A DNA stretch of 64,000 nt, taken from Candidatus Bipolaricaulota bacterium. Lineage in GTDB: Bacteria; Bipolaricaulota; Bipolaricaulia; M55B111. The notes below the pieces were generated by a model. That model worked only from the letters and a program-made list of their open reading frames with translations, had not been told where the DNA came from and ran no database searches. Made by a program: the position numbers and the translations under genes. Shown here one piece after another: positions 290 through 61,543 of this stretch. Within the stretch, counting starts at the first letter, position 1, and each line of letters starts with the position of its first letter. The stretch spans positions 26,017 to 90,016 of the forward strand of contig JAIPHJ010000002.1 in the NCBI GenBank assembly GCA_021735245.1. Direction: 5' to 3'.

Positions 290-377
290 ACCCATCTTAT
301 CCCTAGGCAGCATCACCTCGACCTCATAAAACATATATTAGCAGGTTCAGAGATCGATTTATGGGCTCGATTTGCGG
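290..377 (+). repeat. Island intergenic repeat, copy 1 (blocks B and C)
   Basis: ACCCATCTTATCC (290-302) and AGGTTCAGAGATCGATTTATGGGCTCGATTTGCGG (343-377) align with 4771-4783 and 4818-4852. Confidence 0.6.
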
Positions 378-532
378 CAGGAGAAAGGTTTTTAATGCAA
401 TTTTCCTATCCCTTACAACTCTTATATCTGTAAAATTCGTCTAAAGTACTTATCAGAAATAATTCAAATATATAAAGAGTACTGGGGGCGGTTCCTACTT
501 ACCGAAAATCCTAATACCTTTAGAAATCCCCT

Positions 533-3274
533 CTATAAACTACTAAAACCCCCTACGATCTCCCAATAATTATGATCCGTGGGCAATGGGCTTTCTTTGA
601 GTTTAAAAGAAATCGTGGCAGTCCTACCGTTTGCCTTAACTATGATTTCAGCTAATGCAATTGTTTTGTCTGAATTATACCACTTTATATTCCGAAGATA
701 AGCTTCGCTTATATATTTACCCTGACTGTCTAAAATAAATCTAGACTTTGATACTTTTCTTTCACTCAGAGAAAACCGTTCCCAGATAGAACCCCAATTT
801 TCTCTTTCGATGTCCCTAGCGAGTTCTTTGGCGTCCTTTTTCGCCTCTTTAAGAGATCTAAACTCCACTGAGGCCTGAGTAGTAACCTTGCTACCGAATT
901 CAGGTACAATTTTCAATTTAATATTGTATTTCCCGTGGCTGTTGTACTTATGAGTAACGGTGTCCCCCTCTTTCTCCTTTTTTTGATTCCCATCACCAAA
1001 GTCCCAAACCCAACTTTTTATCCCTACATCTGTGTTGTCTAGCGAAGGTTTGAGTTCTACCTCTCGGGGACCAATCTTGCTAATAAGGAACTCAGGTTTG
1101 AGTTCGGGCTTTTTTAGGTTTACAACTCTAGTGGATATATTCGTGCCACCATATCTATCTGTTACTTTTAACTCAATAGCGTAAGGGCCATTATTCTGGT
1201 ACTCATGAGTGACTATATTGCCTTTTTTCTTCTTCTTTGTATTCCCGTCACCAAAGTCCCAGACCCAACTTTTAATCTTCTTCTCTTTATTTCTAATGGA
1301 AGGGTCTAACTTTATTTTATGTAGTCCGATCCTCTTTAAGTCGAAGTCTGGAATGGGTACTTTATAATCCTTTGGTTTAATAGCTACTGTTTGAGTTGTA
1401 GATTTGTTGTTTCCGTATATATCTGTAGCTCGTAGCTTTACTTCGAAAATTCCTGAACTGTCATATTTATGTTTAATTGGCGAAGCTTTATCAATTTGAA
1501 CCGACTCACCATTTTCAAAATGCCAAGACAGATGTTTAATATCTTCGGAATCGTTATTCATAGTAGGTATACACTTGATTTCCCTTGATGAAACCTTAAT
1601 TATGTCAAAATGTGGTTCTAGCTCGTAACCAGTAGGAGAGACGCCGACCTTTTTACTTATAATGCCCTCATTTCCGTATATGTCTGTAATTGTTAGTTTT
1701 ACTGTAGTAAGTTGGTCAAGAAGCCCGTATTTATGTTCAACTTTTTTGCCTCCCTCTACTACAGCTTTATTTCCATCACCAAAGTGCCATACAGCTTCTT
1801 CAATTTCCCTGTCTGGGTCCTCAGTATAAGGAGTAAATAATACTTTGCCTATTTCAATATTTTCGAATGTAAAACTTGGTTTGGGGTTAGTGTTCTTAAG
1901 TTCTTCAATTTTTTCTGGCGACAAACCTTGAGTTACATATTGGAGTCTGCCGGCTGAGAATAATGAGATTATTATCATTACTGAGATGCCTATTCTCTTT
2001 GGTGAAAATGGATATGTAGACACATGAAAGTCTTCGGGAGCAAGAAGTAAGATCACGAACATCAAACCTATGGAAGCAACAACCCAATACCATCCAACTG
2101 GCCCAAATACCGCTGCAAGGAAGAAAAGTACCCCTAGAATTGTACCAAGTACAAGTGTGCTTTTGCGTCCTATTTCGTTTTTATAAGTTTGGTTGGATTT
2201 CTTTTCTTCAGGGCTCTCACCATATTCATTTTCTCCATCATCTCCTCCAAGCAAACCAAGTTCAATAATGAACCAGAAAAAATTGATTAAAGGTACAAAT
2301 ACTATTAAATTCCACCTAGCTGATTTACCTCTGTCATGCCATCTTTTAGCACAAACTGAAAGCTCCGAAAAGAAGAACCATCCAAATGCAGAAATTAATG
2401 TAAAAATGGACAAACTCATCACTGCCACAGATTCTTTATTCCTAGCGATAGCTAAACCAAACAAAGTATTAATTAACGCATATATTACCACTAATGTAAG
2501 CGAATCACGCCACCATTGGTATTTACTTATTCTTCCTTTTGATGAAAAGAATCGCTCCCAATATTTTACTTTCATAATATTCCCCACAAGATTGCTAAGA
2601 TTCTCGAAAAATCCTAGGGAGAATCTCCCATTATTCTCTGCAGATATATTTCTGTTTTTGCTGGTTTCGGGTTTATCTTGGGGCGTTCCTTTTTCAATGT
2701 CGCTTCCAGATTTACAAGTTCCGCAGTTTTTCATTCTATCCACTGCAAGCGAAGTTAAACAGCTAGTTTTTTTCACGTTAAAGGCTGACCGTTGAGGTGG
2801 AATCCTGTAATCACATTCTAAATCCATCTCACCGAAACTAACCAAATTTTCAAGGAGATTGCCTATATCCTGTTGAATTTCCCTTTCTGTTTTTTCATTT
2901 ATCGAGATATTTCGGATGCCATTGATGTTTCCAAACCAATACATTTCGCTAAAATTGATTAGCAAAGGGAGGTTGATTTTACCTTGAAACTCCGCCAAAA
3001 AATTAGGGTTCTCTTTCTTTGACTTAGAACCGATTACACCTAAACCAATAATTCCCATATGTTGTTTCCTGATTTTGCTGGGGACAGTTGAGAGATGCTT
3101 TGGGTGGCTGCCATGGAATAACACTAATTGTCCAGACTCAAGCTCACTCCAAGTATCGCTATATTTTTCCTCTAGACCCCAAAACCCTTCTTTGAAAGTA
3201 GTAAGCCAGTGCTCTATTGGTCCAGTGAACTTTTTAATATCTTTTTCTTCAAAGCGTTCAACATTTTCCTCCAT
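533..3274 (-). CDS. Multidomain membrane protein: PUA/EVE-like N-terminus (weak), DUF805-type TM block, four PKD repeats
   Basis: 913-aa ORF. N-terminal pattern HWLTTFKEGFWGL..GQLVLFHGS..MGIIGLGVIGS. DUF805-like KRWHDRGKSARWNLIVFVPLINFFW. Four W[HD]FGDGN..H[KE]Y..TD.YG PKD units. Confidence 0.8.
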   Translation of the reverse strand: MEENVERFEEKDIKKFTGPIEHWLTTFKEGFWGLEEKYSDTWSELESGQLVLFHGSHPKHLSTVPSKIRKQHMGIIGLGVIGSKSKKENPNFLAEFQGKINLPLLINFSEMYWFGNINGIRNISINEKTEREIQQDIGNLLENLVSFGEMDLECDYRIPPQRSAFNVKKTSCLTSLAVDRMKNCGTCKSGSDIEKGTPQDKPETSKNRNISAENNGRFSLGFFENLSNLVGNIMKVKYWERFFSSKGRISKYQWWRDSLTLVVIYALINTLFGLAIARNKESVAVMSLSIFTLISAFGWFFFSELSVCAKRWHDRGKSARWNLIVFVPLINFFWFIIELGLLGGDDGENEYGESPEEKKSNQTYKNEIGRKSTLVLGTILGVLFFLAAVFGPVGWYWVVASIGLMFVILLLAPEDFHVSTYPFSPKRIGISVMIIISLFSAGRLQYVTQGLSPEKIEELKNTNPKPSFTFENIEIGKVLFTPYTEDPDREIEEAVWHFGDGNKAVVEGGKKVEHKYGLLDQLTTVKLTITDIYGNEGIISKKVGVSPTGYELEPHFDIIKVSSREIKCIPTMNNDSEDIKHLSWHFENGESVQIDKASPIKHKYDSSGIFEVKLRATDIYGNNKSTTQTVAIKPKDYKVPIPDFDLKRIGLHKIKLDPSIRNKEKKIKSWVWDFGDGNTKKKKKGNIVTHEYQNNGPYAIELKVTDRYGGTNISTRVVNLKKPELKPEFLISKIGPREVELKPSLDNTDVGIKSWVWDFGDGNQKKEKEGDTVTHKYNSHGKYNIKLKIVPEFGSKVTTQASVEFRSLKEAKKDAKELARDIERENWGSIWERFSLSERKVSKSRFILDSQGKYISEAYLRNIKWYNSDKTIALAEIIVKANGRTATISFKLKESPLPTDHNYWEIVGGFSSL

Positions 3275-3621
3275 TAATATAACGCCCCTTGTTGAAAGTT
3301 TACCCTACTATCAAATATATTCACCTTTATGTCAACCTATAAAAGTGTTTATTTGAGATAAAATAATGTGGGTTATCAAAAAATTCTGTTGCCTTATTTA
3401 AAATTGAAGTTAACTACACAAACTTAACGTCCATTTCTTGTGCCTACCATCGGTCATACTTATCGACAAGAGTCAAGAGTTTCACCTCTAGTTCTATTAA
3501 AACCGGATACATCAGCCAGCATCGATTGGAATGTCCGGTAAACTTAAAACACAGTTAGATACTACCTTGTGTACCAAAGATTGTCATCTAAAGCAGAGGA
3601 GCGTTCACAAAAATATCTTTT

Positions 3622-3652
3622 AGTTCGTTCAGGGGGCGATTTGAAGCGTTGA
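3622..3652 (+). repeat. Island intergenic repeat, copy 2 (block C)
   Basis: AGTTCGTTCAGGGGGCGATTTGAAGCGTTGA aligns with 4818-4852 and 343-377. The flanks (3560-3620) also align loosely with 4785-4817. Confidence 0.55.
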
Positions 3653-3749
3653 CCTATGATCAACCACACGTGGGCTTTATTAAATTAGGCAAGCCAATCA
3701 CTACCCCAGTGTAGGCCAGTCCAAAACGTACCACTCTCCCCTCGGATCA

Positions 3750-4598
3750 TCAAAACCCTTCCAGTCCTCCTTTACCATTTGGTGTACTATTTTCAGCATT
3801 AATTTCGACCTCAACAGAATATTTCACCCCTTTAATTTCTTCCGTTTCTTCTTTAGTTAGTTCGTTTTTAGCAACCTTTACAGTTTTTTTGTTTCTGTCC
3901 CCTACAAAAGCAAGCAATAACAGCTCTGAAAACCATAAATGAAATGGAAAAGCGTTTGGTAACAACTCAGATACTCTGGCATTTTTACTGTTGTTTAAAT
4001 AACTTTCAACTGAAAGGGCTGGAACGACAAAGACCCCTCCTACATTTTTATAGACTGGGGGTTCGGAAAAATATCGAGGGAAAGGCCCGGGAAACGCATA
4101 TCTATTAGATTGGTTGAGTGGTTGCATGGCCTTCGAGGGGACAAAAAGAAAATAAAAAGAACTCGGTGTTAAATCTAATAATAATGTGCTCTGCGAAGGG
4201 CCAGAATTTCCAACCTTATGGAAAAATTCTCGAAAGGTTCCCTTTTCTCCAGATTTTTTGCACTGGATTAGTGTTGCATATGTGCTTTTCGTTTCGCCTT
4301 GTATGTCTTTGTAGATTATAAGACCTATATCAGCCCCTGTTTTTGGCTCAAATTTAGATTCATTTACCGTAACATCAATATTAATTCCCTTTTCTTTAAG
4401 TTTCGGCTTAATTTTACCCCATAAGCTGTAATTTGATTGATCATGCAACATTTCAATCAGTTTTGTTGTAAGGGTTTCTTCTCTTATAGGTTGATCGAGA
4501 GCAAGAATATTGTTATATTTCTCACCGATTTCTTTGGAAATATTCCAAGCTAAATTTGCCAGAAGTCTTCTTACTTCTTTATCAAACCAAGAATCCAT
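3750..4598 (-). CDS. Hypothetical protein, possible PD-(D/E)xK-like nuclease core; 3' end probably frameshifted
   Basis: 282-aa ORF with GADIGLII...LIQCKK (weak nuclease-like motif). It ends GLEGF-TGA inside a GGGTTTT run. The +1 frame continues DDPRGEWYVLDWPTLG to TAG 3701-3703. Confidence 0.6.
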   Translation of the reverse strand: MDSWFDKEVRRLLANLAWNISKEIGEKYNNILALDQPIREETLTTKLIEMLHDQSNYSLWGKIKPKLKEKGINIDVTVNESKFEPKTGADIGLIIYKDIQGETKSTYATLIQCKKSGEKGTFREFFHKVGNSGPSQSTLLLDLTPSSFYFLFVPSKAMQPLNQSNRYAFPGPFPRYFSEPPVYKNVGGVFVVPALSVESYLNNSKNARVSELLPNAFPFHLWFSELLLLAFVGDRNKKTVKVAKNELTKEETEEIKGVKYSVEVEINAENSTPNGKGGLEGF

Positions 4599-4740
4599 AA
4601 GTTCCTACCTCCATAAACCGATGATTATTTAAGATAAGATAACCAAGCTTGTATCAACTAAGATACCGTTGTTTGTTCATTAAATAAAGTTTCTTAAGAA
4701 ACTAATGTTTTACACTCCCTCCTCCATCGCACACACCTCT

Positions 4741-4852
4741 TTTATCGCAAATAAAAACCCAGATCATCCAACCCATGTTATCCGACAACTTGTGTCCAAC
4801 CTAAAAGAACAGCACTCAGTTGGTTCAGAGACCGATTAGGAGCGTCGATTTA
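4741..4852 (+). repeat. Island intergenic repeat, copy 3 (blocks A, B and C, best preserved)
   Basis: TTTATCGCAAATAAAAAC (4741-4758), ACCCATGTTATCC (4771-4783), AGTTGGTTCAGAGACCGATTAGGAGCGTCGATTTA (4818-4852). Confidence 0.65.
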
Positions 4853-4921
4853 CGAATAACGCCCGAGACGGAATTAACAAATTTCAAGAGGCTTGATAGG
4901 TTGTTTTGTTTCTGCCTTAGT

Positions 4922-5545
4922 TCATCCCCGATAACGATACCCCGATCCCAACGTAGGCCAGTCTGCAATATACCACTTTCCATCCGGGTTGCCTGATCCT
5001 TCTTCGTCCTCTCGTATCATCTCGATTTCCCTCTGTTCCGTCTCGACCGAGCCGTCTCGAATCATTTCTACCTCGACCTTTATTTCGGTCATTGTAGGAG
5101 ATTCATCGGTAATATCCTGCAGCTCGAAGTGCTTGAGTCGATAGTCCTCGTAGAAGTCCTTCATGACCACGGGTGCGTGTTTGTCTTTGATACCTTCACT
5201 CGGAGGTATTAAGTTACCCATACTACGGTAGTCATCCTGCTTCCGGTAATCGAGAAACTCGACCGCTCGTCTCTCGGGGGCGCCTCTATCTAGATTCCCG
5301 GGTCTGGGAATTTCGGGGATGTCTCGACCGACCACGAGATCCCGGGGCTGCCAGTGGTCGTTCATTGCTCCACCAATATCGAGCTTTCCCGTTTCATTGC
5401 ACTCCGGGCATCGCCAGTCCGCATCTATAGAGGTGATTTGGTCGTCTCTGATGGTGATCCAGCCGTTGGGAATTATGACTTGGTTGTCACAGTTTGGGCA
5501 GTTGTCGGTGTGGAATTTCTCGGTGTTCATGGTATTTTTAGTCAA
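4922..5545 (-). CDS. Zinc-ribbon-like protein with a conserved C-terminal GKWYIADWPTLG module
   Basis: 207-aa ORF. Start is TTG 5545 or ATG 5530, 2 nt after the stop of 5548-6753. Two CxxC pairs (CPNCDN, CPECNE). Confidence 0.6.
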   Translation of the reverse strand: MTKNTMNTEKFHTDNCPNCDNQVIIPNGWITIRDDQITSIDADWRCPECNETGKLDIGGAMNDHWQPRDLVVGRDIPEIPRPGNLDRGAPERRAVEFLDYRKQDDYRSMGNLIPPSEGIKDKHAPVVMKDFYEDYRLKHFELQDITDESPTMTEIKVEVEMIRDGSVETEQREIEMIREDEEGSGNPDGKWYIADWPTLGSGYRYRG

Positions 5546-5547
5546 GT

Positions 5548-6753
5548 CTATCGCATGAACTTTCGCCCAAAAACGAGCACTAATGTCGCCATTAAGATAC
5601 CGCCAATGACTGACTCGCTACCTGCAACTAACTGCCACACCAACCCATCCGGTGCTATATCACCGTAACCCAAAGTGGTGAAGGTTACTGTGCTGAAATA
5701 AAAATTCTTTAGCAATCCTGCCCAATCACACAAGATAAAGGGTGGTTGTAATGTCCATGTTAATGACTTAGAAATATTGACACTTTCCATAGTCGCTGTT
5801 AGCCCGTTAAAATAGGCGTAAGCCAGACCATACCCGAAAATAACCACTATCCACGATCCAATAACTTTCGACCAACTTGTCCCGTATCCTGTGATGAAAT
5901 CCACAAGGTAGGAAAACCATTTTCTCGGGTTGTATGATTTTAGTTGCCTACGCTTCATTATCATCTCGTGCCTGAACCACTTGTCAGCTTCATCTCGGTT
6001 TCCGTCATTTTCAAATTTCTTTCTTACTTTTCTATAGAAACTCTCACCATGTCTTGGGTTTTCAAATTTATTAGCCCCAACTATTAACTCTCCGTCGCCA
6101 AACTCTGTATTTTTCATATACACTATCCTATGAAATTTGACACCAATGAACCAAACATCTCCCTCGAATTGGGTTCTTTTAAACGAAGCTCCTTTTAAAA
6201 ATTTTGCTCCCGTCCAATCAACTTTGCCTTCAAAATGGGTTTTGACAAAAGAAGTATCTCTAAAAAAATCCACATCTCTAAATGAAACAAAGTTCTTAAA
6301 ATGGGCGGCGTCAAAAAAGACACGACCTTTAAATTTAGTCCAGCGAAATTCTTTACTCTCTTCAAATTTGACATCGGTAAAATCTACTGATTCTTTAAAT
6401 TCCGCTAAAACGAAACTAATCATAACTTCTGCTTTATTCCTAAAATCAGTGGGTTGGGTAGAGTCATCTGGGACTGAAGGAAAACAATACCCCTTCCAGT
6501 TGATATCTTTTTCGAACACCCACCTCCTATGTTCTTGACTTCCAAAATCTTCCCAGTGCCTCAATCTATTGTTTTCATCAATTTCAGCATTTTCCCCCTC
6601 AGGCTCCCTCGCCTCCTGCCGAATCAGCTTGTAAAACCCCTTTGCCGCTAGCCCGGACTTGTTAGGCTCATGAAAGATGCAGTGCTCACTGTCTCTTAGT
6701 GCTGGCTCTTCGCAGCCTTCGTATTCGCATTCGGACATAAATACCCACCTCAA
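5548..6753 (-). CDS. Pentapeptide-repeat protein fused to a two-TM K+ channel pore
   Basis: 401-aa ORF. N-terminal Cys/His cluster CEYEGCEEPALRDSEHCIFHE. Long run of xxFxx pentapeptide-type repeats. C-terminal TM-pore-TM with selectivity filter TTLGYGD. Confidence 0.8.
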   Translation of the reverse strand: MRWVFMSECEYEGCEEPALRDSEHCIFHEPNKSGLAAKGFYKLIRQEAREPEGENAEIDENNRLRHWEDFGSQEHRRWVFEKDINWKGYCFPSVPDDSTQPTDFRNKAEVMISFVLAEFKESVDFTDVKFEESKEFRWTKFKGRVFFDAAHFKNFVSFRDVDFFRDTSFVKTHFEGKVDWTGAKFLKGASFKRTQFEGDVWFIGVKFHRIVYMKNTEFGDGELIVGANKFENPRHGESFYRKVRKKFENDGNRDEADKWFRHEMIMKRRQLKSYNPRKWFSYLVDFITGYGTSWSKVIGSWIVVIFGYGLAYAYFNGLTATMESVNISKSLTWTLQPPFILCDWAGLLKNFYFSTVTFTTLGYGDIAPDGLVWQLVAGSESVIGGILMATLVLVFGRKFMR

Positions 6754-6773
6754 ACAGAATTACTGTAACAAAC

Positions 6774-6792
6774 TTTTATCGTGAATAAAAAC
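6774..6792 (+). repeat. Island repeat block A, variant copy
   Basis: TTTTATCGTGAATAAAAAC versus TTTTATCGCAAATAAAAAC at 4740-4758. Lies between two unrelated minus-strand genes. Confidence 0.5.
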
Positions 6793-6959
6793 AGGGAGGT
6801 TGAAGTTTAAACAGCAGATTATAATTGAAGCGAGACTGATAAGTGACTCCTAAACGTCGTGAGAGAGACCTCCTCTGCCGGAGAGAGGACCTTACCCAGC
6901 TGATATACTGCTCCTCCGCTCCCACAAAGGATTGATAATTGATGGGAACGGAATGAAGT

Positions 6960-7811
6960 TTACAATTCTGACTCCCAGTTGTTTAACTCCTTTTCAGCCT
7001 TCTCGATTTTCTCTTCCCTCTTTTTTCGTTCAAATTCTTGCTCAAGTATTATCTCCACTGCAGTCCTTACTGTATCAAATAAGTCCTGACATGTGAATTG
7101 ATCTAGTTCGTGAACCCCTTTACTTAAAATGTCATAAATATGTTTGTTATTAACCATGAAATCAGGCAGGTAGTCTCTCAAGGCATTTATCTTGTCTTTA
7201 GCTTTAGCTTCTTTAAAACTTCCCTCTTCAAAGCTGACTTCATTTTTGTGGTTTTGGTAAGTGTTATTAATCATACTTTCGAAAATTCGTCTTAAGTATA
7301 TAAAGGCTCCAATTCCATAATTATGATCGTATAGAATTATTGCATTCATGTATTCGTCAGCTTTCTCGGAGCTTAATATATCTTCCACGATCTTCCTGTT
7401 CCGCTTAAATTCATCTCTCTTCTGATCTTTTTCTGATGGGTATTGTCCAATCTTCATTATGAAATCTTGTTCCTCTTTTCTTTGTAGAGCGAAGTAATAA
7501 CCCATAATATGATCTCTCGGACACTTTAATACGATTTTGAACTCTTTGTTAAATCTTAATAGGTCATTATAAGCTTTCTCTCTATCATCCGGTAAAGGGT
7601 CTGGTGCATACTTTGGCCTATAGGTTGTGGTGCATGCTGATTTACCTACTGACTCAAAAGTGCTAACTTTAGTACATTGAGGACAGTAGCTGTCTAATTT
7701 AAGGCTTGTGCTAGTAAGCTCAGCTAGCCACTCTATGGCATCAGGTGAGATCTCAACCTTGCGGTACAGAGGAAATTCTTTTAGGAAGTCAACAACCTTA
7801 GGGGGGCTCAT
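6960..7811 (-). CDS. Hypothetical protein, Zn-ribbon-like N-terminus and DUF4145-like C-terminus
   Basis: 283-aa ORF with CPQC...CPRDH. C-terminal helical pattern GIGAFIYLRRIFESMIN...LSKGVHE resembles DUF4145 (recalled pattern, not searched). Confidence 0.55.
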   Translation of the reverse strand: MSPPKVVDFLKEFPLYRKVEISPDAIEWLAELTSTSLKLDSYCPQCTKVSTFESVGKSACTTTYRPKYAPDPLPDDREKAYNDLLRFNKEFKIVLKCPRDHIMGYYFALQRKEEQDFIMKIGQYPSEKDQKRDEFKRNRKIVEDILSSEKADEYMNAIILYDHNYGIGAFIYLRRIFESMINNTYQNHKNEVSFEEGSFKEAKAKDKINALRDYLPDFMVNNKHIYDILSKGVHELDQFTCQDLFDTVRTAVEIILEQEFERKKREEKIEKAEKELNNWESEL

Positions 7812-8000
7812 ATTACCACCTCAGGGTACAAAGAGCCCGTGTATAATAATACGGACAGTATTATAATAAGCCCGATAATTACACCATCCACAGGAAAGAA
7901 CCTTATGACGTCAAACACCTTACCTCTTCAGCATTACCTGAGTAATTACGCCTTGCCACCATTACACTACCTTTGATGAGATAACTTATACCCCCGTCTG

Positions 8001-8024
8001 ATTTCAGATAGCGGTATCTGAACC
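8001..8024 (-). repeat. Island repeat block C, inverted copy
   Basis: The reverse complement GGTTCAGATACCGCTATCTGAAAT matches GGTTCAGAGACCGATTAGG (4822-4840). Confidence 0.4.
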
Positions 8025-8092
8025 TCAGTAAAGTTCATCTCAGCATATAACCCATAAAGAATCTTCTAATACCCAATTCAAAGAGCGAACCA

Positions 8093-11025: not shown

Positions 11026-11174
11026 AATTCCGCCTCCTTGAGCACTCGGATTATAGAATAAACGAAAAATCTTGCCAACTTTGTCAGTGACGTCAAAAAC
11101 AAACCGCTATGTAAGATGCCAAACGATGGAACAGTTTATCGCTATTATTGCTAAGCTGCTCTGCCGGCACCGGA

Positions 11175-12862: not shown

Positions 12863-13996
12863 CTACTCGCTCCAGAGTTTGTCCATGTATTCACTGGTGT
12901 TTGTGTCACCAACAACAATATTTTCCATGGCTTTCTTCTTTCTCGTTAAGTAGTACTGGGCATCATCATATATCCAATCATATAGGAGCTGTACTTGGTC
13001 TCTGCCTACTATGTATAGATCGTAGGTCTCCTTTCCTCCGAATGCTTTATCGCTCACGAATTTTTTACGTACATCGATACGTTCTACACCGCAACCTTCA
13101 ACAATGATGTCTTTTAGGTCGTTCAGCACACCATACTTTCCTGTAATTATGACGTTGTAATGACCATTTTCCTTGCCCCTTCCCACGTGGCCATCACCAT
13201 CAATAACACCCCGGACGAAGTGGTTTACAGTTGGACTATCTTTTATCATAGAAGATACTTCATTCCAGTCTTTAGATCGTCTTGGTACGTACTGCTCTAT
13301 ACCTTTTATTATGTCTATTTGACAGGTAGAGTATCGATACAATGGTCTCTGTCCTGTTCTGTAATCAATATGTAGGTCTTTATCTGACTTCAGACAACTC
13401 CTAAAGTTTTCCGCCAATTCTCTATCGGTAACTCGAAATTCAAGTTCGTTGTCTTCGACATGTATTGTGCCATCTGTCGCAAATAAGCCTAATGCGTAGG
13501 CAGATCTTTCACTTTCTAAGTCATCGAAAGTATTTATATCAATGCTGTAATAATCTGAAGTCCCGGTGCCTCCATGAATTACTTCATGTTTGCGCAAACT
13601 ATCTGTACCATAATGACCCTCTAAACCTACCTCATTTGCCCACCTTTTAACTAACTTCCAAACCCAGCTACGATTTATATTTTGATCATGAGTGGTACTC
13701 GTAAACAACCAGTCAGATTGCCTTGCATCTACTTTATTGAAATACCATTGAAGTGCTTTATTTGATCTGTCATCAATCGGTATAGTGTCGGCCCACCCTT
13801 CCTTGAATATCCCGGATTTGACTTCTCCATTATCTTTCCGCACATCCTTGACTTTCAACTCTAGGAGGTGGCTTATCCTTCGAGGTAAGTTGTAACCGAG
13901 TACTACCATTAGGTAATTTCGGGGTATCTCGTTTTCTCGTACGTACGACTTGATTTTTTCGTACTCTTCTTCGGTGAATTTATCGACCCGTTCCAT
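12863..13996 (-). CDS. Degenerate tyrosine-recombinase N-terminal part fused to a double-motif LAGLIDADG endonuclease domain
   Basis: Residues 1-140 parallel the 191-aa recombinase at 16451-17026 (LELKVKDVRKDNGE vs LSLKVKDVRKENGE; GLEGHYGTDSLRK vs GLEGQYATHSLRK). Then come ALGLFATDGTI and FVRGVIDGDGHV. No C-terminal catalytic Tyr region. Confidence 0.75.
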   Translation of the reverse strand: MERVDKFTEEEYEKIKSYVRENEIPRNYLMVVLGYNLPRRISHLLELKVKDVRKDNGEVKSGIFKEGWADTIPIDDRSNKALQWYFNKVDARQSDWLFTSTTHDQNINRSWVWKLVKRWANEVGLEGHYGTDSLRKHEVIHGGTGTSDYYSIDINTFDDLESERSAYALGLFATDGTIHVEDNELEFRVTDRELAENFRSCLKSDKDLHIDYRTGQRPLYRYSTCQIDIIKGIEQYVPRRSKDWNEVSSMIKDSPTVNHFVRGVIDGDGHVGRGKENGHYNVIITGKYGVLNDLKDIIVEGCGVERIDVRKKFVSDKAFGGKETYDLYIVGRDQVQLLYDWIYDDAQYYLTRKKKAMENIVVGDTNTSEYMDKLWSE

Positions 13997-16450: not shown

Positions 16451-17026
16451 TTATAAATTCAATTCGTCAACGGCATCGTCCACGTCATCGTACGTGAGCC
16501 CACAGTAATCGAGAGTTTGCCGCCGGGAACTATGATTAAATTTGGACTGCAAGATATACGGATCAACACCCTGCCTGATAGCATGGTATCCAAACGTCTT
16601 GCGTAACGAGTGAGTGGCGTATTGACCTTCTAAACCCAACCTGTCGGTTAGATCCTTAATAATTTGGTCGCACCTCTGGCGGCTTATCTGGCCTGCATAC
16701 GTGGTGAAGAGGTAGTCTTCCTGCTCTTTTGATGGGTTGTCTTCGAAGAACAGGTCCATCGCCTCCCTTATAGCATCGTTAATCTTGTGCCGGTTATTCT
16801 TCCCCGTCTTCTGTTCCCTGAGTCGGATATGTGTCCGGTATTCGCCGTTCTCCTTTCTAACGTCCTTGACCTTTAAGCTCAGTATGTCACCTATCCTGAG
16901 AGCCGAGTTGAGACCTATCGTTATCCAGAGTAAGTCTCTGAATCTATTGTTCGCTTTCAAGATACTTTTCATATCGTCGATCTTCTTTCTATCACGAATT
17001 GGATCTACTTCGTTCATAAGATACAC
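16451..17026 (-). CDS. Small tyrosine recombinase (catalytic domain only)
   Basis: 191-aa ORF with ALRIGD (Arg I), HSLRKT (HxxR), NHSS and a C-terminal Tyr region (TLDYCGLTY). Confidence 0.8.
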   Translation of the reverse strand: MYLMNEVDPIRDRKKIDDMKSILKANNRFRDLLWITIGLNSALRIGDILSLKVKDVRKENGEYRTHIRLREQKTGKNNRHKINDAIREAMDLFFEDNPSKEQEDYLFTTYAGQISRQRCDQIIKDLTDRLGLEGQYATHSLRKTFGYHAIRQGVDPYILQSKFNHSSRRQTLDYCGLTYDDVDDAVDELNL

Positions 17027-17086
17027 CTCGTTTATTCAAACCTGATGCACCGGAGGTTACTACCGGCAGCTTACCGGGAACCTCTT

Positions 17087-17114
17087 AATCGCTCGATAAA
17101 TCGATCTCAGTACC
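17087..17114 (-). repeat. Island repeat block C, inverted copy
   Basis: The reverse complement GGTACTGAGATCGATTTATCGAGCGATT shares the 13-mer GAGATCGATTTAT with 348-360. Confidence 0.5.
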
Positions 17115-17158
17115 GGTTAAGGCACCGATATAATTTACACGGCCAAATCAAATTAGTT

Positions 17159-18149: not shown

Positions 18150-18495
18150 GTGGGGGCGATTCCCGAAAGTCTATTTCCCACTGGTTTTTCGAGAAAAGTT
18201 TAACTCTTCGGTGTTGTGTAAAACACTATATGAAAGCGGTTTTCGGGAGAACTTTGAGCGCCAATTCGTAAACCTCGGAAGGGCAAAATCTGGAGAGGTA
18301 CCCGACCCAATATCCGTGACCTTAACTACCTCAGGGGGGGTAAAGGAGCCCAATCGGACTCACTTGACTCTCGAACCAGCACGGCTACCAGTCCACGTAA
18401 TGTCCACAATGAACTTACCGACGAGCTCTTGGGGGATTAGGGGCAAAATTGGGCGTCTCTGGCGTAGGGTTCCAGCGAAGTTTCCGGAGATAGTT

Positions 18496-18532
18496 CCGAT
18501 AGATTGCATATCGGAGATATGCATTCTATCGG
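18496..18532. repeat. 37-bp near-perfect palindrome (17-bp arms, 3-nt spacer)
   Basis: CCGATAGATTGCATATC gga GATATGCATTCTATCGG, one central mismatch. Flanked by TTTCCGGAGA and TTTCCGGGGA. Confidence 0.85.
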
Positions 18533-18569
18533 GCAGGGTTATCGGGGAATTTCCGGGGATTCAGGGGGT

Positions 18570-18604
18570 CACTTGCACAGTGTCCTAAGGACACAGTGCA
18601 AGTG
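18570..18604. repeat. 35-bp near-perfect palindrome (16-bp arms, 3-nt spacer)
   Basis: CACTTGCACAGTGTCC taa GGACACAGTGCAAGTG, one central mismatch. Confidence 0.85.
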
Positions 18605-18813
18605 CCTAGGCAAGCTTAGGCCCCGTTTTGGTTTGTCAAGTCCGTGAAGCAGGGGAGTCCGAGCATTCTAGTCAGTCGTTTGCCCGTTCAGCAAGGCTGG
18701 TTGAGCCTGTATACCCCCCTACATCTCACCGGGGAGCCGATTCTCTAAAACCCCCTTGCTGATGCGCCTAGACGAATCTATCAAATCTCGGGTTTAACTT
18801 TGTTAAACTTCTC

Positions 18814-18833
18814 TTTTTATCGCAAATAAAAAC
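18814..18833 (+). repeat. Island repeat block A copy
   Basis: TTTTTATCGCAAATAAAAAC, nearly identical to 4740-4758. Confidence 0.7.
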
Positions 18834-19152
18834 TGGGGAGCACCAAGTGGCATCTTTAATCCGGCAATAACGAGAGGTCAATCTTCCAAATCGAATAGTA
18901 CAGTCTGATGAGAATTTCAGCGACTGAGTCGCTCTCAGAGCTTACTGATAGCTCTGTTAATAGAGATTGTTTTTCAGGGCATGGTAATGTAAGGCTGGCA
19001 AAGGCGTGGGTATAACGTATGAGAAAGTGATGTCGAAATACCAAGAGGACTTAGGACGACTTCAATGCCGGACAAATCGGATACTGTTCTAGCAGGTGAT
19101 CAAAAGGTTGTTATGTTGCGTCCGGAATATGGCTTGGGTAAGTCTGCAACTT

Positions 19153-19174
19153 GTTTTTTATTTGCGATAAAAAC
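19153..19174 (-). repeat. Island repeat block A, inverted copy
   Basis: GTTTTTTATTTGCGATAAAAAC is the reverse complement of block A. With 18814-18833 it brackets about 320 bp. Confidence 0.7.
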
Positions 19175-22947: not shown

Positions 22948-22974
22948 TGAGTTCGTTCAGGTTATGCGCCGAAT
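22948..22974 (+). repeat. Island repeat block C copy
   Basis: GAGTTCGTTCAGGTTATGCGCCGAATC shares the 12-mer AGTTCGTTCAGG with 3622-3633. Confidence 0.5.
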
Positions 22975-24538: not shown

Positions 24539-25519
24539 TTATAAGTGATCCATAGGTGAAGTCTTCTTGGTTGCCTCCTTCAATCGTCGTCCGCTCATGT
24601 GCACGTAACGCATCGAAGTCTTCAATTGTTCGTGACCCATCATCTGCTGTAGCGAGTAAACATCTAACCCGTTTTTAACAGCCATCGTCGCAGCAGTATG
24701 CCGTAATACATGCGGTGAGACTTTTGTATCCTCGAGACCGGCTCTTTTTTGTAGTCGATCGATAATACGAGATAAATTCCTCTTTTTAATTTGGTGGCCG
24801 TTAAGGTCTATGAAAATTGTTTTGGTGTTAATTTCCGCCTCAATATCATTCCTAACCTCAGTCCAGTATCCAAGCCACTCACTTGGTAATTCTCCGAAAA
24901 AAACCCTTCGATCCTTAGCCCCTTTTCCGTTTACCTTTAGAGAGTTGTCATCTAGGTTGAGGTCTTCAAGTTTTGCTGTCCTTACTTCTTCGGACCTAAG
25001 CCCCACATCTAGCATTAGTAGTATAATTGTCCGGTTTCTGATTCCCGACCAACGATCTAAACGGTCCCTTGTCACTTTAACTAACTTTTTCATTTGGTCC
25101 TCATCCAGCACGTAGGGGTACTTGTTCGGGGTCTTGGGCTCTTTAATGTCGTCCGTTGGAGCTTTCTCGATTGCATCCTTGTCTACCAACCAGTTGAAAA
25201 AAGCCCGAAGGACTCTATAGCGAATGGCGATCGTCGTGATCTTTATTCCGTTGTCCAACAAATACTTCATGTAGTCACGAACTACGTCTGCGGTTATGTC
25301 CTCGACGAGCATGTCATTGTCGAGGAAGTCCATAAAGTACCCGAGTATTTCTTTGTATTGGCCTATTGTAGCAGAGGACAACCCATCCAGCTCTTTGTAG
25401 TTAAGGTAGGACTCCACTACAGTGTTAATTCTCGCTTCTCCATTTCTATTCGTCAGATTAGGATTGACGTCGTCTTCTCCATCCTGCAGAAAGTCGTACG
25501 TCGGATTTTCTCTACGCAT
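24539..25519 (-). CDS. int: Tyrosine integrase (XerC/D-phage type)
   Basis: 326-aa ORF. SAM-like N-domain, GLRSEE (Arg I), HVLRHT (HxxR), GHEQLKTSMRYVH (His/Tyr). Its start is 78 nt from the tRNA-like sequence. Confidence 0.9.
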   Translation of the reverse strand: MRRENPTYDFLQDGEDDVNPNLTNRNGEARINTVVESYLNYKELDGLSSATIGQYKEILGYFMDFLDNDMLVEDITADVVRDYMKYLLDNGIKITTIAIRYRVLRAFFNWLVDKDAIEKAPTDDIKEPKTPNKYPYVLDEDQMKKLVKVTRDRLDRWSGIRNRTIILLMLDVGLRSEEVRTAKLEDLNLDDNSLKVNGKGAKDRRVFFGELPSEWLGYWTEVRNDIEAEINTKTIFIDLNGHQIKKRNLSRIIDRLQKRAGLEDTKVSPHVLRHTAATMAVKNGLDVYSLQQMMGHEQLKTSMRYVHMSGRRLKEATKKTSPMDHL

Positions 25520-25596
25520 TTTCTAAATCCATTGAATGCAATCGGATCCTTAAAAATAGGAATCCGGGCTATTCTGTATTATATATACATAATCGT

Positions 25597-25671
25597 CCGG
25601 TTTAACCTCAGTGGTTGAAGAGCACCGGACTTCGGATCCGGGTGTTGGGGGTTCGAATCCTCCCGGGCGTA
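25597..25671 (+). tRNA. tRNA-Arg(UCG)-like sequence with a non-pairing 5' acceptor strand; probable 3' tRNA fragment or att site
   Basis: Canonical anticodon arm CCGGA-CTTCGGA-TCCGG, T arm GGGGG-TTCGAAT-CCTCC and 3' acceptor CGGGCGT-A. The 5' strand CCGGTTT cannot pair, and position 10-25 of the D stem is mismatched. Confidence 0.6.
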
Positions 25672-25817
25672 CTTTCATTCCTTACTATTCTTACCCCCAA
25701 TTTATTTTCTAACTTGCCAAAATTCTCATTAAATGATAGTATCAAACTGGCTGAGCTTGAGTTTGGTCTACCGGGTGCGGTTGAATCCCAAGGGAAAATA
25801 AGCTAGGTGGTTGTTTC

Positions 25818-42424: not shown

Positions 42425-42557
42425 GTCCTTGCTTACGATTTTCGTACCACCTTACGCACTAATCTCCACTAAGAACAATATTTCCCATTAACATTCCAAT
42501 TTCACCTGCCAAATTTGGATAGATTCCCCGTTTGTTCTATAATCCGAGTGTTCAAGA
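42425..42557 (+). promoter_or_regulatory. Repeated promoter module, copy 1
   Basis: Block GTCCTTGCTTACGATTTTCGTACCACCTTACGCACTAATCTCC. TTGGAT (42515-42520), 17 nt, TATAAT (42538-42543). About 500 nt upstream of 43042. Confidence 0.6.
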
Positions 42558-46433: not shown

Positions 46434-46565
46434 GTCCTTGCTTACGATTTTCGTACCATCTTACGCACTAATCTCCCCCACGAACTTTGCGTTCCGTAAA
46501 TCTTCAACTATACTCATCAAATCTCGATAGATTCCCCGTTTATTCTATAATCCGGGTGGTCAAGA
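46434..46565 (+). promoter_or_regulatory. Repeated promoter module, copy 2
   Basis: Near-identical block GTCCTTGCTTACGATTTTCGTACCATCTTACGCACTAATCTCC. CTCGAT, 17 nt, TATAAT (46546-46551). Followed by IS debris, not by a gene. Confidence 0.5.
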
Positions 46566-59339: not shown

Positions 59340-59775
59340 CGGTAAAACCCCCTATTTTATCGATGCCATTTGAAAGAGATGAATAGCGAATAATCAAAGA
59401 ACTAAAGTTACAATATAACTTCCGTAAAATAAATGCAAGATTTGGGGTTCCTGGCCTGGGCCGTTTTGACAATTCATTATTTAAGGGAGAAGATGCGTTT
59501 GTTTTGGCACTCTGTTAAGTCACCCCGGTCTGAGTCGATCTTTAGTATATCAAATCTTCCCTGCCTCGACTGTCGTACGTGAAGTTTATTACTAACCCAA
59601 TGTAGTCCCTTATTTTCGGCTGAAGTGTTAATCTTCTTAGACGCTATGTCGTCCACATATTCGGAAAATAGCATGCTCTCAGAACAATTCTATGTGGTTT
59701 AAACGATCCGGCGGGTTAAATTTCGATTATTTTCCCGTGTGGTATATAATACCGGTAGACAAAGGAGGCAAATTT

Positions 59776-61113: not shown

Positions 61114-61382
61114 GGATTACACTTTAAAAACAATATTAACTAAACCTAGCTCCTCACCTACATTACTCAGTATTCTGCCCTACTGGTATGATAAATCTTA
61201 TCCCAGGGAAAGTGGAGAGTTTGCTTGGGAGCTTAAGTGTGGAGATCGTGGTAACGATATTGCCTAACGAGATAAATTTAAATCTGCTGAAGAACTTCAG
61301 GCTTACGTTTTGGAAGAAAATGAAAGAACTCCCTGTGAGGAGACACGTGATTGGCGGGCTGGATATAAAGGTCTTTGGTTAA

Positions 61383-61495
61383 GATTTCCGTACCACTTTA
61401 CGTTCTAATCTCTGCCAATAATATCATTTTTCGTTAACACTTGATCCTCCGATTTCACTGACAAATTTGGATATATCCCTCTTGTAACCTATAAT
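61383..61495 (+). promoter_or_regulatory. Repeated promoter module, copy 3
   Basis: GATTTCCGTACCACTTTACGTTCTAATCTCT. TTGGAT (61467-61472), 17 nt, TATAAT (61490-61495), 48 nt before ATG 61544. Confidence 0.6.
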
Positions 61496-61543
61496 CCTAT
61501 TCTATTTGCGCCTCAATCGGATCAGAGGTATTTTTATACTACA

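Follow-up and report, generated by a model that had tools for sequence, protein, structure and literature searches.

Modular exchange at conserved linker or boundary sequences is familiar from temperate phages, and 'mobile promoters' are known as well. P4-like satellites and prophages carry variable defence hotspots (PMC9122126), where genes are swapped rapidly and small intergenic gene remnants are left behind (PMC13586616). The Hailong system, which includes a pentapeptide plus K+-channel protein, is found in P4 hotspots (PMC13586616). Here we describe a locus that shares several of these attributes in a 64,000-nt stretch of a Candidatus Bipolaricaulota bacterium genome (assembly GCA_021735245.1, contig JAIPHJ010000002.1, positions 26,017 to 90,016), referred to below as the window and numbered from its first base. 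Five co-oriented minus-strand genes occupy its left 8 kb, and a preliminary description had taken them for a cassette-like array: unrelated genes separated by spacers carrying the same three sequence blocks (A, B and C), which would have been a device for mobilising the genes. A mobile element of ~31.7 kb, integrated at a tRNA-Arg gene, contains the array in its variable accessory-gene region. We consider it on balance probable that the array is an accessory-gene hotspot of this element, built of diverged duplicated scaffolds, with genes replaced by recombination and with Block A acting as a regulatory site.

The two central genes of the array encode a zinc-ribbon protein (4922-5545, minus strand), which belongs to no family and has a conserved C-domain, and a pentapeptide plus Ion_trans_2 K+-channel protein recognised by Pfam (5548-6753, minus). 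Together they form a two-gene anchor (4922-6753, minus) whose orthologues in five other assemblies are 74-79% identical in amino acid sequence, and the homologues of the zinc-ribbon protein led to five related loci, cited here by contig handles beginning with L. Around the anchor lie three variable genes on the same strand, of 913 amino acids (533-3274; DUF805 and four PKD domains in Pfam), 282 amino acids (3750-4598; a sub-threshold DUF6615 match only) and 283 amino acids (6960-7811; no Pfam match). The first two are absent from L245, an 18-kb relative, and the third is replaced there by a RecD-like helicase. The gene labels offered at first were thus sound for the channel; the supposed EVE-like fusion at 533-3274 has no EVE match, and neither 3750-4598 nor 6960-7811 has a firm family. 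PADLOC gave no match to any of the five window genes. The channel protein resembles the Hailong channel component as described (PMC13586616), and its partner protein differs. As had been proposed, the region is lower in G+C, with values of 0.37-0.43 for 1-8 kb and of 0.45-0.51 for the right half.

Spacers of 206-475 nt separate the genes, and the claim that they carry the same blocks holds for most of them; the one at 6754-6959 shares Block A alone and the one at 7812-8092 shares nothing. Blocks C and B, described separately, are one element of ~87 nt (C-B), present three times in the array and once more, as a core alone, at 17.1 kb. The alignment of 376-290 with 4854-4771 scores 53 against 26.8 ± 4.1 for shuffled sequence, and none of 200 shuffles reached that score. 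The C core consists of two WAATCG repeats 14 nt apart followed by TCTCWGWACC. All three array copies are on the minus strand. Copy 1 (290-384) lies in the convergent intergenic region after gene 533-3274 and is 84% identical to L245 11946-12015, which follows a 420-amino-acid paralogue. Copy 2 (3601-3666) is a core only, found by a hidden Markov model (HMM) with E=7.9e-12, though this copy was in the training set; a very degenerate Block B is possible near it at 3551-3563. Copy 3 (4771-4862) is complete, with two WAATCG repeats 14 nt apart, TCTCTGAACC, ~35 nt and GGATAACATGGGT, and has orthologues in L245, L248, L247 and L249. Block C copies are 65-85% alike. Block B can be read as a ribosome-binding site plus ATG (GGAGGATAAC-ATG), invariant in three orthologues, and the mini-ORF (short open reading frame, ORF) that would start there varies from 2 to 24 codons and is not conserved. 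The inverted core noted earlier at 17087-17114 is real as well (17080-17125, plus strand; score 35 against 20.3 ± 2.8), and lies 60-90 nt upstream of a 191-amino-acid tyrosine recombinase; its orthologue in L251 is conserved at background level, ~75%.

Other parts of the original claim for Blocks B and C fell away. Run over the window, the C-B HMM found nothing at E≤10 at 22948-22974 or 8001-8024, where further Block C copies had been placed. The short degenerate C pattern on its own has 7 matches against 3.0 expected, with 4 of 100 shuffles doing as well, and so is not above chance; a 12/13 match of the Block B type alone is likewise expected by chance. Conserved secondary structure, which had been suggested as a check, did not appear: C-B folds no better than shuffled sequence on either strand (z -1.2 to +1.8). 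In a weak alifold hairpin the C core finds its partner in a GAGGTCGA-like segment further downstream, with G-U pairs tolerated on the sense strand only, and a compensatory change is present in one of its 12 predicted pairs. A gapped Block C pattern met six chance matches in unrelated soil contigs and no related loci in a scan of metagenome contigs, a collection that does not include the source of the window, and nothing in viral contigs. Rfam recognises two tRNAs only in the window; at E≤1 in 16.0-24.6 kb it gave two chance-level matches and nothing else. A tRNA origin of Block C, considered for its resemblance to GGTTC, was rejected, the window holding no repeat of the tRNA-Arg region.

A further stretch of homology precedes two of the unrelated genes. 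Positions 3469-3335 align with 4750-4607 over ~140 nt (score 53 against 27.2 ± 4.0 shuffled), beginning with the right half of Block A and ending just short of the start codon, and therefore genes 533-3274 and 3750-4598 share a leader; the same alignment bears out the degenerate Block A that had been suspected at about 3461-3480. Leader 1 (3335-3469, minus), upstream of 533-3274, comprises the degenerate right half of Block A (~3461-3469), an ATGG relic and the ~115-nt leader itself, and contains an inverted A-like 18-mer at 3346-3363. Leader 2 (4607-4739, minus), upstream of 3750-4598, includes a mini-ORF at 4710-4727 (ATG GAG GAG GGA GTG TAA). The shared leader has sigma-70-like hexamers, and in leader 1 a sigma-70-like promoter reads TTGACA-17-GATAGT at 3335-3307. 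No strong terminators were found in the spacers.

Both ends of lost genes are still visible between the present ones. In L245, AGAGGTGTGTGCG-ATG-GAA-GAC is the true start of the 420-amino-acid gene and the counterpart of the window mini-ORF at 4710-4727, which by this correspondence is the start relic of a replaced gene. At the other end of gene 3750-4598, the segment 3703-3770 (minus) encodes EDWKGFDDPRGEWYVLDWPTLG* out of frame with the present ORF. The C-terminus of the zinc-ribbon protein has the counterpart of this tail (...EDEEGSGNPDGKWYIADWPTLG...), and the same tail ends the 420-amino-acid protein of L245; judged by this homology, 3703-3770 is a relic of a lost gene, the C-terminal tail of a paralogous family. 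The C-terminal 143 amino acids of the L245 protein, tail included, are 47% identical to the zinc-ribbon protein (E=1e-43). No similarity was seen between the 420- and 282-amino-acid proteins, nor did the C-terminus of the 913-amino-acid protein show any that would make it a fourth member of the tail family. L245 holds a relic of its own, 59 amino acids of the zinc-ribbon N-terminus ending inside Block A (E=4e-14). These relics lie in former coding sequence, and therefore some junctions are not at a fixed site.

The preliminary description had proposed comparing strains or metagenome variants, and the comparison bore out its view that unrelated co-oriented genes with homologous spacers vary among relatives, with homology breaking at or next to the blocks. 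To the left, the window is continued by Logan contig L127, whose genes come in the same order (a window position equals 10500 minus the L127 position). The window runs from HU through an outer-membrane-protein-like gene, the 283-amino-acid gene and a Block A copy (A2) to the channel and zinc-ribbon genes, then C-B copy 3 with its Block B and a second Block A copy (A1). From A1 it passes through the start relic, leader and 282-amino-acid gene to the tail relic, C copy 2, the degenerate Block A, the other leader and the 913-amino-acid gene, and then, with L127, to C-B copy 1, three reverse-strand genes, a Block A, iterons, a 119-amino-acid gene and a primase. L245 has HU, the RecD-like helicase, the 59-amino-acid relic, Block A, the channel and zinc-ribbon genes, then C, B, A, the 420-amino-acid gene, C-B, a 114-amino-acid gene, the primase and SIR2-TPR. 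HU, the channel plus zinc-ribbon pair and the primase are thus common anchors, and the genes between them differ, with the RecD-like helicase, the 420-amino-acid paralogue and SIR2-TPR standing in L245 in place of the window genes. L245 carries defence-type proteins: RecD-like (3.3e-86), SIR2 (1.2e-49) and NucC-like (6.8e-27).

The junctions can be placed closely. DNA homology between the window and L245 begins exactly at the outer (left) edge of A2 (6791), includes the stretch from the zinc-ribbon gene through C-B copy 3 and A1, stops at 4720, ~20 nt past A1, and returns at C-B copy 1 (374-305, 84%). Orthologous spacers are ~80% conserved, no better than the neighbouring gene. In L248, homology is lost at the end of Block B, followed by 95 unrelated nt, an isolated Block A and unrelated DNA. 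A short ORF downstream of that isolated copy (MRVKLTLSQQESKTSIPINYNYYI..., L248 ~1560-1670) may resemble the N-terminus of Cas6 proteins. Three metagenome contigs, L247, L249 and L250, break off within Block C at one shared 56-mer, and identity between L247 and L249, 70-88% in the gene, jumps to 100% across these final 56 nt, which looks like an assembly-graph branch at a shared or repeated segment.

The existence of Block A was confirmed. It is a quasi-palindrome of 19-21 bp, GTTTTTAT-TTGCG-ATAAAAAC, with inverted arms of 7-8 bp around an asymmetric centre of 5-7 bp. Allowing up to three mismatches, the pattern TTTTTATTTGCGATAAAA occurs five times in the window (3346+, 4740-, 6774-, 18815-, 19155+) against 0.15 expected, a number reached in none of 100 shuffles, and the copies are confined to the A+T-rich left 25 kb. 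A1 (4740-4758, minus) is an exact match (GTTTTTAT-TTGCG-ATAAAAG) placed 13 nt after Block B; its orthologue at L245 10585-10602 is 12 nt before the ATG of the 420-amino-acid gene. A2 (6774-6792, minus; TTTTTATTCACGATAAAAG, two mismatches) is 36 nt upstream of the channel ATG (6738), and its counterpart in L247 retains the GATAAAG half alone. A3 (18814-18833, minus) and A4 (19153-19174, plus), both exact, form an inverted pair around ~320 bp that is retained in L042; after A3 come the palindrome GTTTAACaaaGTTAAAC and a noncoding region that is conserved, and the A3 flank is common to L066 and L042. A sixth copy lies left of the window, at L127 12460-12477. In related metagenome-assembled genomes (MAGs) Block A occurs in unrelated contexts (L017, L066 and L042); the L017 copy precedes an accessory gene and has tRNA-Val and a fragment of an integrase close by. 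These three were the only related loci when genome contigs were scanned with a Block A 18-mer, the matches being mostly chance ones in unrelated taxa. A 16-mer scan of viral contigs met chance matches only, besides an unrelated promoter-like repeat in phage contigs of 22-25% G+C; 34-nt matches in the viral contigs L138 and L153 are inside coding sequence.

The setting of Block A would fit a role in expression. Copies lie between 12-36 nt (two in L245 and A2 in the window) and ~280 nt upstream of starts, ~9 of 11 are co-oriented with local transcription, and in L245 Block A abuts the ribosome-binding site. For the channel gene, the spacing between Block A and the ribosome-binding site is maintained in three orthologues, and the GATAAA half is the best conserved. 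The idea of a common regulatory site, raised at first for all the blocks, is therefore best kept for Block A alone, which plausibly acts in cis on expression and is less likely to be a recombination site; it could be the core of a promoter with an extended -10-like element (TGcGATAAA) or the operator of a dimeric DNA-binding protein. Other readings were set aside. That Block A closes an ORF (FYLR*) is true of the L245 relic only and not generally. A gain or loss of Block A upstream of the primase operon between L127 and L245 was dropped, the alignment being ambiguous since TCTAGAAT occurs twice. Readings of the blocks as sigma-54, sigma-28 or Bacteroidetes promoters, DnaA boxes or dif fail direct comparison with the consensus sequences.

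The element itself consists of the left 25.7 kb of the window and ~6 kb beyond, and is bounded by a 30/30-nt direct repeat of the tRNA-Arg 3' end (25645-25674; L127 16482-16511), the left copy of which stops at the end of L127. At the right end (24539-25672), a Xer-like integrase (24539-25519, minus) adjoins tRNA-Arg (25605-25672, plus). In the 6 kb on L127 are the three reverse-strand genes, a Block A, iterons, the 119-amino-acid gene and a primase-helicase of 698 amino acids with Zn-ribbon, Toprim and DUF3987 (phrog_6088, 4.8e-35). The element shows what is expected when integration is at a tRNA: an integrase at the tRNA, a tRNA 3' repeat at the far border, its own replication protein and variable genes between anchors. 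The four TTTACAnnnTATCT iterons (L127 12513-12650, ~2.0-2.15 kb left of the window) lie between the Block A copy and the 119-amino-acid gene/primase operon, in a region resembling an origin or operator of the element. Two small tyrosine recombinases accompany the integrase, one of them joined to LAGLIDADG, and there is an SNase gene. The smaller, of 191 amino acids (16451-17026, minus), is a catalytic domain only (PF00589 1.8e-24; phrog_216 3.4e-49). In the other (12863-13996, minus) residues 7-136 form a tyrosine-recombinase catalytic domain, which leads into a LAGLIDADG_3 homing-endonuclease-like region; the C-terminal part of the recombinase does not resume, an arrangement that would fit either a fused gene or one that a homing endonuclease has interrupted. 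No link between any of these three tyrosine recombinases and the blocks could be demonstrated, nor did machinery dedicated to cassettes come to light, so that the cognate recombinase hoped for earlier did not emerge.

Related contigs of near-equal length (L253-L255, 11.3-11.4 kb) recur across several samples, carrying CSD, a DUF3987 primase, a small integrase (66% identical), GpA terminase, SNase and a helix-turn-helix protein. They are probably a small circular virus or satellite of the lineage, related to parts of the island. The C copy is absent upstream of the small integrase in L253, and these ~11.4-kb relatives carry neither Block A nor Block C. At the borders of the island we also observed GGAATCCGGGCTATTCT at 25558-25575 and at L127 16443-16460, ~20-30 nt inside both ends and beside the tRNA-Arg repeats, which may be an integrase arm-type site. 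The tRNA-Arg(TCG) at 25605-25672 may itself be a hybrid or partial copy produced on integration, in which case the left border would carry the intact gene, because it is short (just 68 nt), scores low in Rfam (34.9 bits) and has the island on its 5' side.

We reasoned that the homologous spacers are easiest to understand as the diverged remains of whole units. An ancestral unit would have consisted of Block A, a ribosome-binding site and ATG, a gene and the C-B element, the gene having a variable N-terminus and a conserved C-domain of ~145 amino acids ending in WY..DWPTLG. Tandem duplication of this unit would have produced the present spacers as diverged copies of one another. Unrelated genes, each arriving with the common ~115-nt promoter-bearing leader, would then have replaced the bodies of some of the paralogues, so that relics of a start codon and of a tail stayed behind together with the intergenic scaffold. 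The repeated scaffold would in turn offer homology for exchange within and between related elements, and the swapping would have proceeded by homologous or homology-assisted recombination. A scaffold both repeated in the element and shared among its relatives would thereby account for the differing gene content and for junctions at or beside the blocks, and junctions that fall in former coding sequence argue against one fixed crossover site. On this evidence of duplicated units, relics, missing hairpin and untied recombinases, the proposal that the spacers are a defined mobilising device is not supported.

Several points weigh against this explanation and should be considered. No recombination event was seen directly, whether as circular junctions or as deletion or inversion variants. 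Sharp homology breaks at the palindrome edges and the isolated Block A of L248 would also fit a site-specific recombination site. The ~115-nt leader occurs twice after an ATGG relic, which needs either duplication or a repeatable insertion mechanism. As a promoter, Block A has GATAAA without the conserved -7 T and no conserved -35 nearby, and where it lies 12 nt from the ATG it would yield a nearly leaderless mRNA; nor did Pfam and PHROG scans of the island proteins give a candidate regulator. The cassette genes of the window match no defence family, so that 'defence hotspot' holds for the L245 variant only. Finally, only about five related loci stand behind the comparison.

One rival would be an integron-like platform without attC, in which one of the tyrosine recombinases of the island crosses over at Block C (tandem WAATCG repeats plus TCTCTGAACC) or at Block A, whose geometry is like that of a tyrosine-recombinase core site, and direct repeats allow gene units to be excised as circles and reinserted. 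Much in the locus invites such a reading: the three tyrosine recombinases, an inverted C core where att sites are often found, upstream of the 191-amino-acid recombinase, direct repeats (C copies 1 to 3; A1 and A2) flanking gene units, homology that breaks exactly at the edges of Block A, contigs that end in Block C with a jump in identity, and an inverted A3/A4 pair conserved in L042. However, other junctions interrupt what was once coding sequence, after its codon 3 and ahead of the tail; the C copy beside the recombinase is no better conserved than its flanks in L251 and is missing in L253; the small-integrase relatives lack both blocks; L042 and L066 have Block A with no recombinase nearby; the Block C copies are just 65-85% alike; and the metagenome scan for the C pattern brought up no related loci. 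We think this platform unlikely, though the sharp edges of homology at Block A, its geometry and the three tyrosine recombinases leave a site-specific model in play. A more specific version, a new Bipolaricaulota cassette platform whose ~190-amino-acid or Xer-like tyrosine recombinase would move gene units through the double-stranded A palindrome or the C core, we rate as quite unlikely. If true, it would be a functional parallel to integrons or pdif modules with unrelated sites.

Another possibility is that the blocks are selected as intercistronic RNA or regulatory signals of a long operon (a processing site, translational control, or a leader mini-ORF at Block B), gene turnover being incidental. 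The co-orientation of the genes, spacers free of strong terminators, the weak C-core hairpin with its sense-strand G-U pairs, the invariant ribosome-binding site plus ATG of Block B and the abutting Block A of L245 would all suit it; the shuffle-level folding, the single compensatory change, the unconserved mini-ORF and spacers no better kept than the adjoining gene do not, and the relics are left unexplained. This too we regard as unlikely. An insertion of small selfish repeats between genes, of the type of miniature inverted-repeat transposable elements (MITEs), had been offered as an alternative at the outset, and short repeats in intergenic DNA and the isolated Block A with unrelated flanks in L248 are what it would predict. 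Yet C-B-A has no terminal inverted repeats or target duplications around it, the copies are confined to the island with none in the 38 kb of the window outside it, and they sit at orthologous positions in L245 and L248 with ordinary divergence, which makes the idea very improbable. Chance similarity in A+T-rich DNA does account for the short degenerate C pattern, for the failed copies at 22948 and 8001 and for the 12/13 Block B-like match; as a general explanation it has next to no standing against the shuffle controls for Block A and the long alignments and against blocks conserved at orthologous loci from other samples. For Block A, the three C-B copies and the leader, chance is refuted.

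Two further observations concern noncoding DNA elsewhere in the window. At 18214-18925 (minus), a region of ~700 nt is 72-82% identical to a related MAG (L042 755-1417; L066 1887-2100), has no coding signal and no Rfam match, and folds with a minimum-free-energy z of -2.9 (20 shuffles only). A 16-bp hairpin in it (CACTTGCACTGTGTCC/GGACACTGTGCAAGTG) keeps its pairing in L042 despite changes on both arms, and the L042 counterpart lies between two convergent genes. The region is preceded by an inverted Block A pair and is a candidate large noncoding RNA or origin-like DNA element, and a pattern drawn from it found nothing in viral contigs. A second intergenic repeat family is found in the right half (42425-42557, 46434-46565, 61371-61509 and 59717-59764), with an inverted copy at 11037-11090 and one in L017 (4051-4112); a conserved block of ~50 nt is followed by a near-consensus sigma-70 promoter, TTGGAT-17-TATAAT.

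The hotspot explanation gives a first and concrete view of the turnover of accessory and defence-type genes in a mobile element of the Bipolaricaulota, a phylum not yet cultivated, with relics marking the old genes and scaffolds marking the junctions. The channel and zinc-ribbon pair and its unannotated neighbours are candidates for new defence or accessory functions. Block A, a sharply conserved palindrome common to several genomes of the lineage, can be tested for a part in regulation or in recombination, and if site-specific recombination proved true, this would be a new cassette system.

How the locus compares with known systems is instructive. It is like an integron, or a cluster of attC sites lacking integron integrases (CALIN), in having co-oriented unrelated genes, each followed by a related element of ~90-110 nt, and a tyrosine recombinase nearby. 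However, there is no IntI, no R''/R' cores and no attC hairpin. The integron-integrase model TIGR02249 (cut-off 265) gave 24 bits for the 191-amino-acid recombinase, 73 bits for the Xer-like integrase and no match for the LAGLIDADG-carrying one; PRK15417 reached 42 bits against a cut-off of 435. On direct reading, the attC cores R'' (RYYYAAC) and R' (GTTRRRY) are absent, TCTGAAC not being RYYYAAC. The array spacers are long, with promoter-like leaders of their own, whereas integron cassettes are mostly promoterless and tightly packed, and some array junctions are inside former coding sequence. Because the IntI scores are far below the cut-offs, cores and hairpin are lacking and the spacers are long and promoter-bearing, the array, as judged from its sequence, is not an integron, in agreement with the preliminary description.

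The pdif modules of Acinetobacter plasmids are similar in that accessory modules are bounded by short palindromic recombinase-type sites, and a Xer-like recombinase is present here as well. Block A, though, reads TTAT-N5-ATAA with A/T arms of 7-8 bp, the opposite way to the ATAA-N6-TTAT of dif, a 28-bp site made of a XerC arm, a 6-bp centre and a XerD arm; its copies are mostly direct and do not alternate in orientation, and evidence of Xer action is absent. For an invertible switch or shufflon, the A3/A4 pair has the inverted arrangement; the DNA-invertase model PRK09871 gave 42 bits against a cut-off of 222, and no variant of inverted orientation was seen. The linker exchange of temperate phages is alike in its short conserved intergenic sequences, common to non-homologous genes and coinciding with mosaic junctions; in contrast, the linkers here are read as tandem duplicates, each taking in the 3' end of a paralogous gene, and one palindrome of 19-21 bp is conserved across several genomes of a lineage. 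With P4-like hotspots the differences are one of phylum, cassette genes in the window that match no known defence family, and a tandemly repeated intergenic scaffold (Block A, C-B and leader) beyond two flanking core genes. Pfam and PHROG scans of the island proteins named none of the P4 core genes psu, delta, sid, alpA and epsilon, no dedicated models having been run. The likenesses are a tRNA-integrated element with integrase and primase-helicase, content between conserved genes that differs among close relatives with remnants of replaced genes (as in prophage hotspots too), defence-type genes in one variant (RecD-like, SIR2 and NucC-like in L245), and a pentapeptide plus K+-channel protein as in Hailong. 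By analogy, and the P4 comparison is one of analogy only, the element appears to function like the hotspot of an integrative element.

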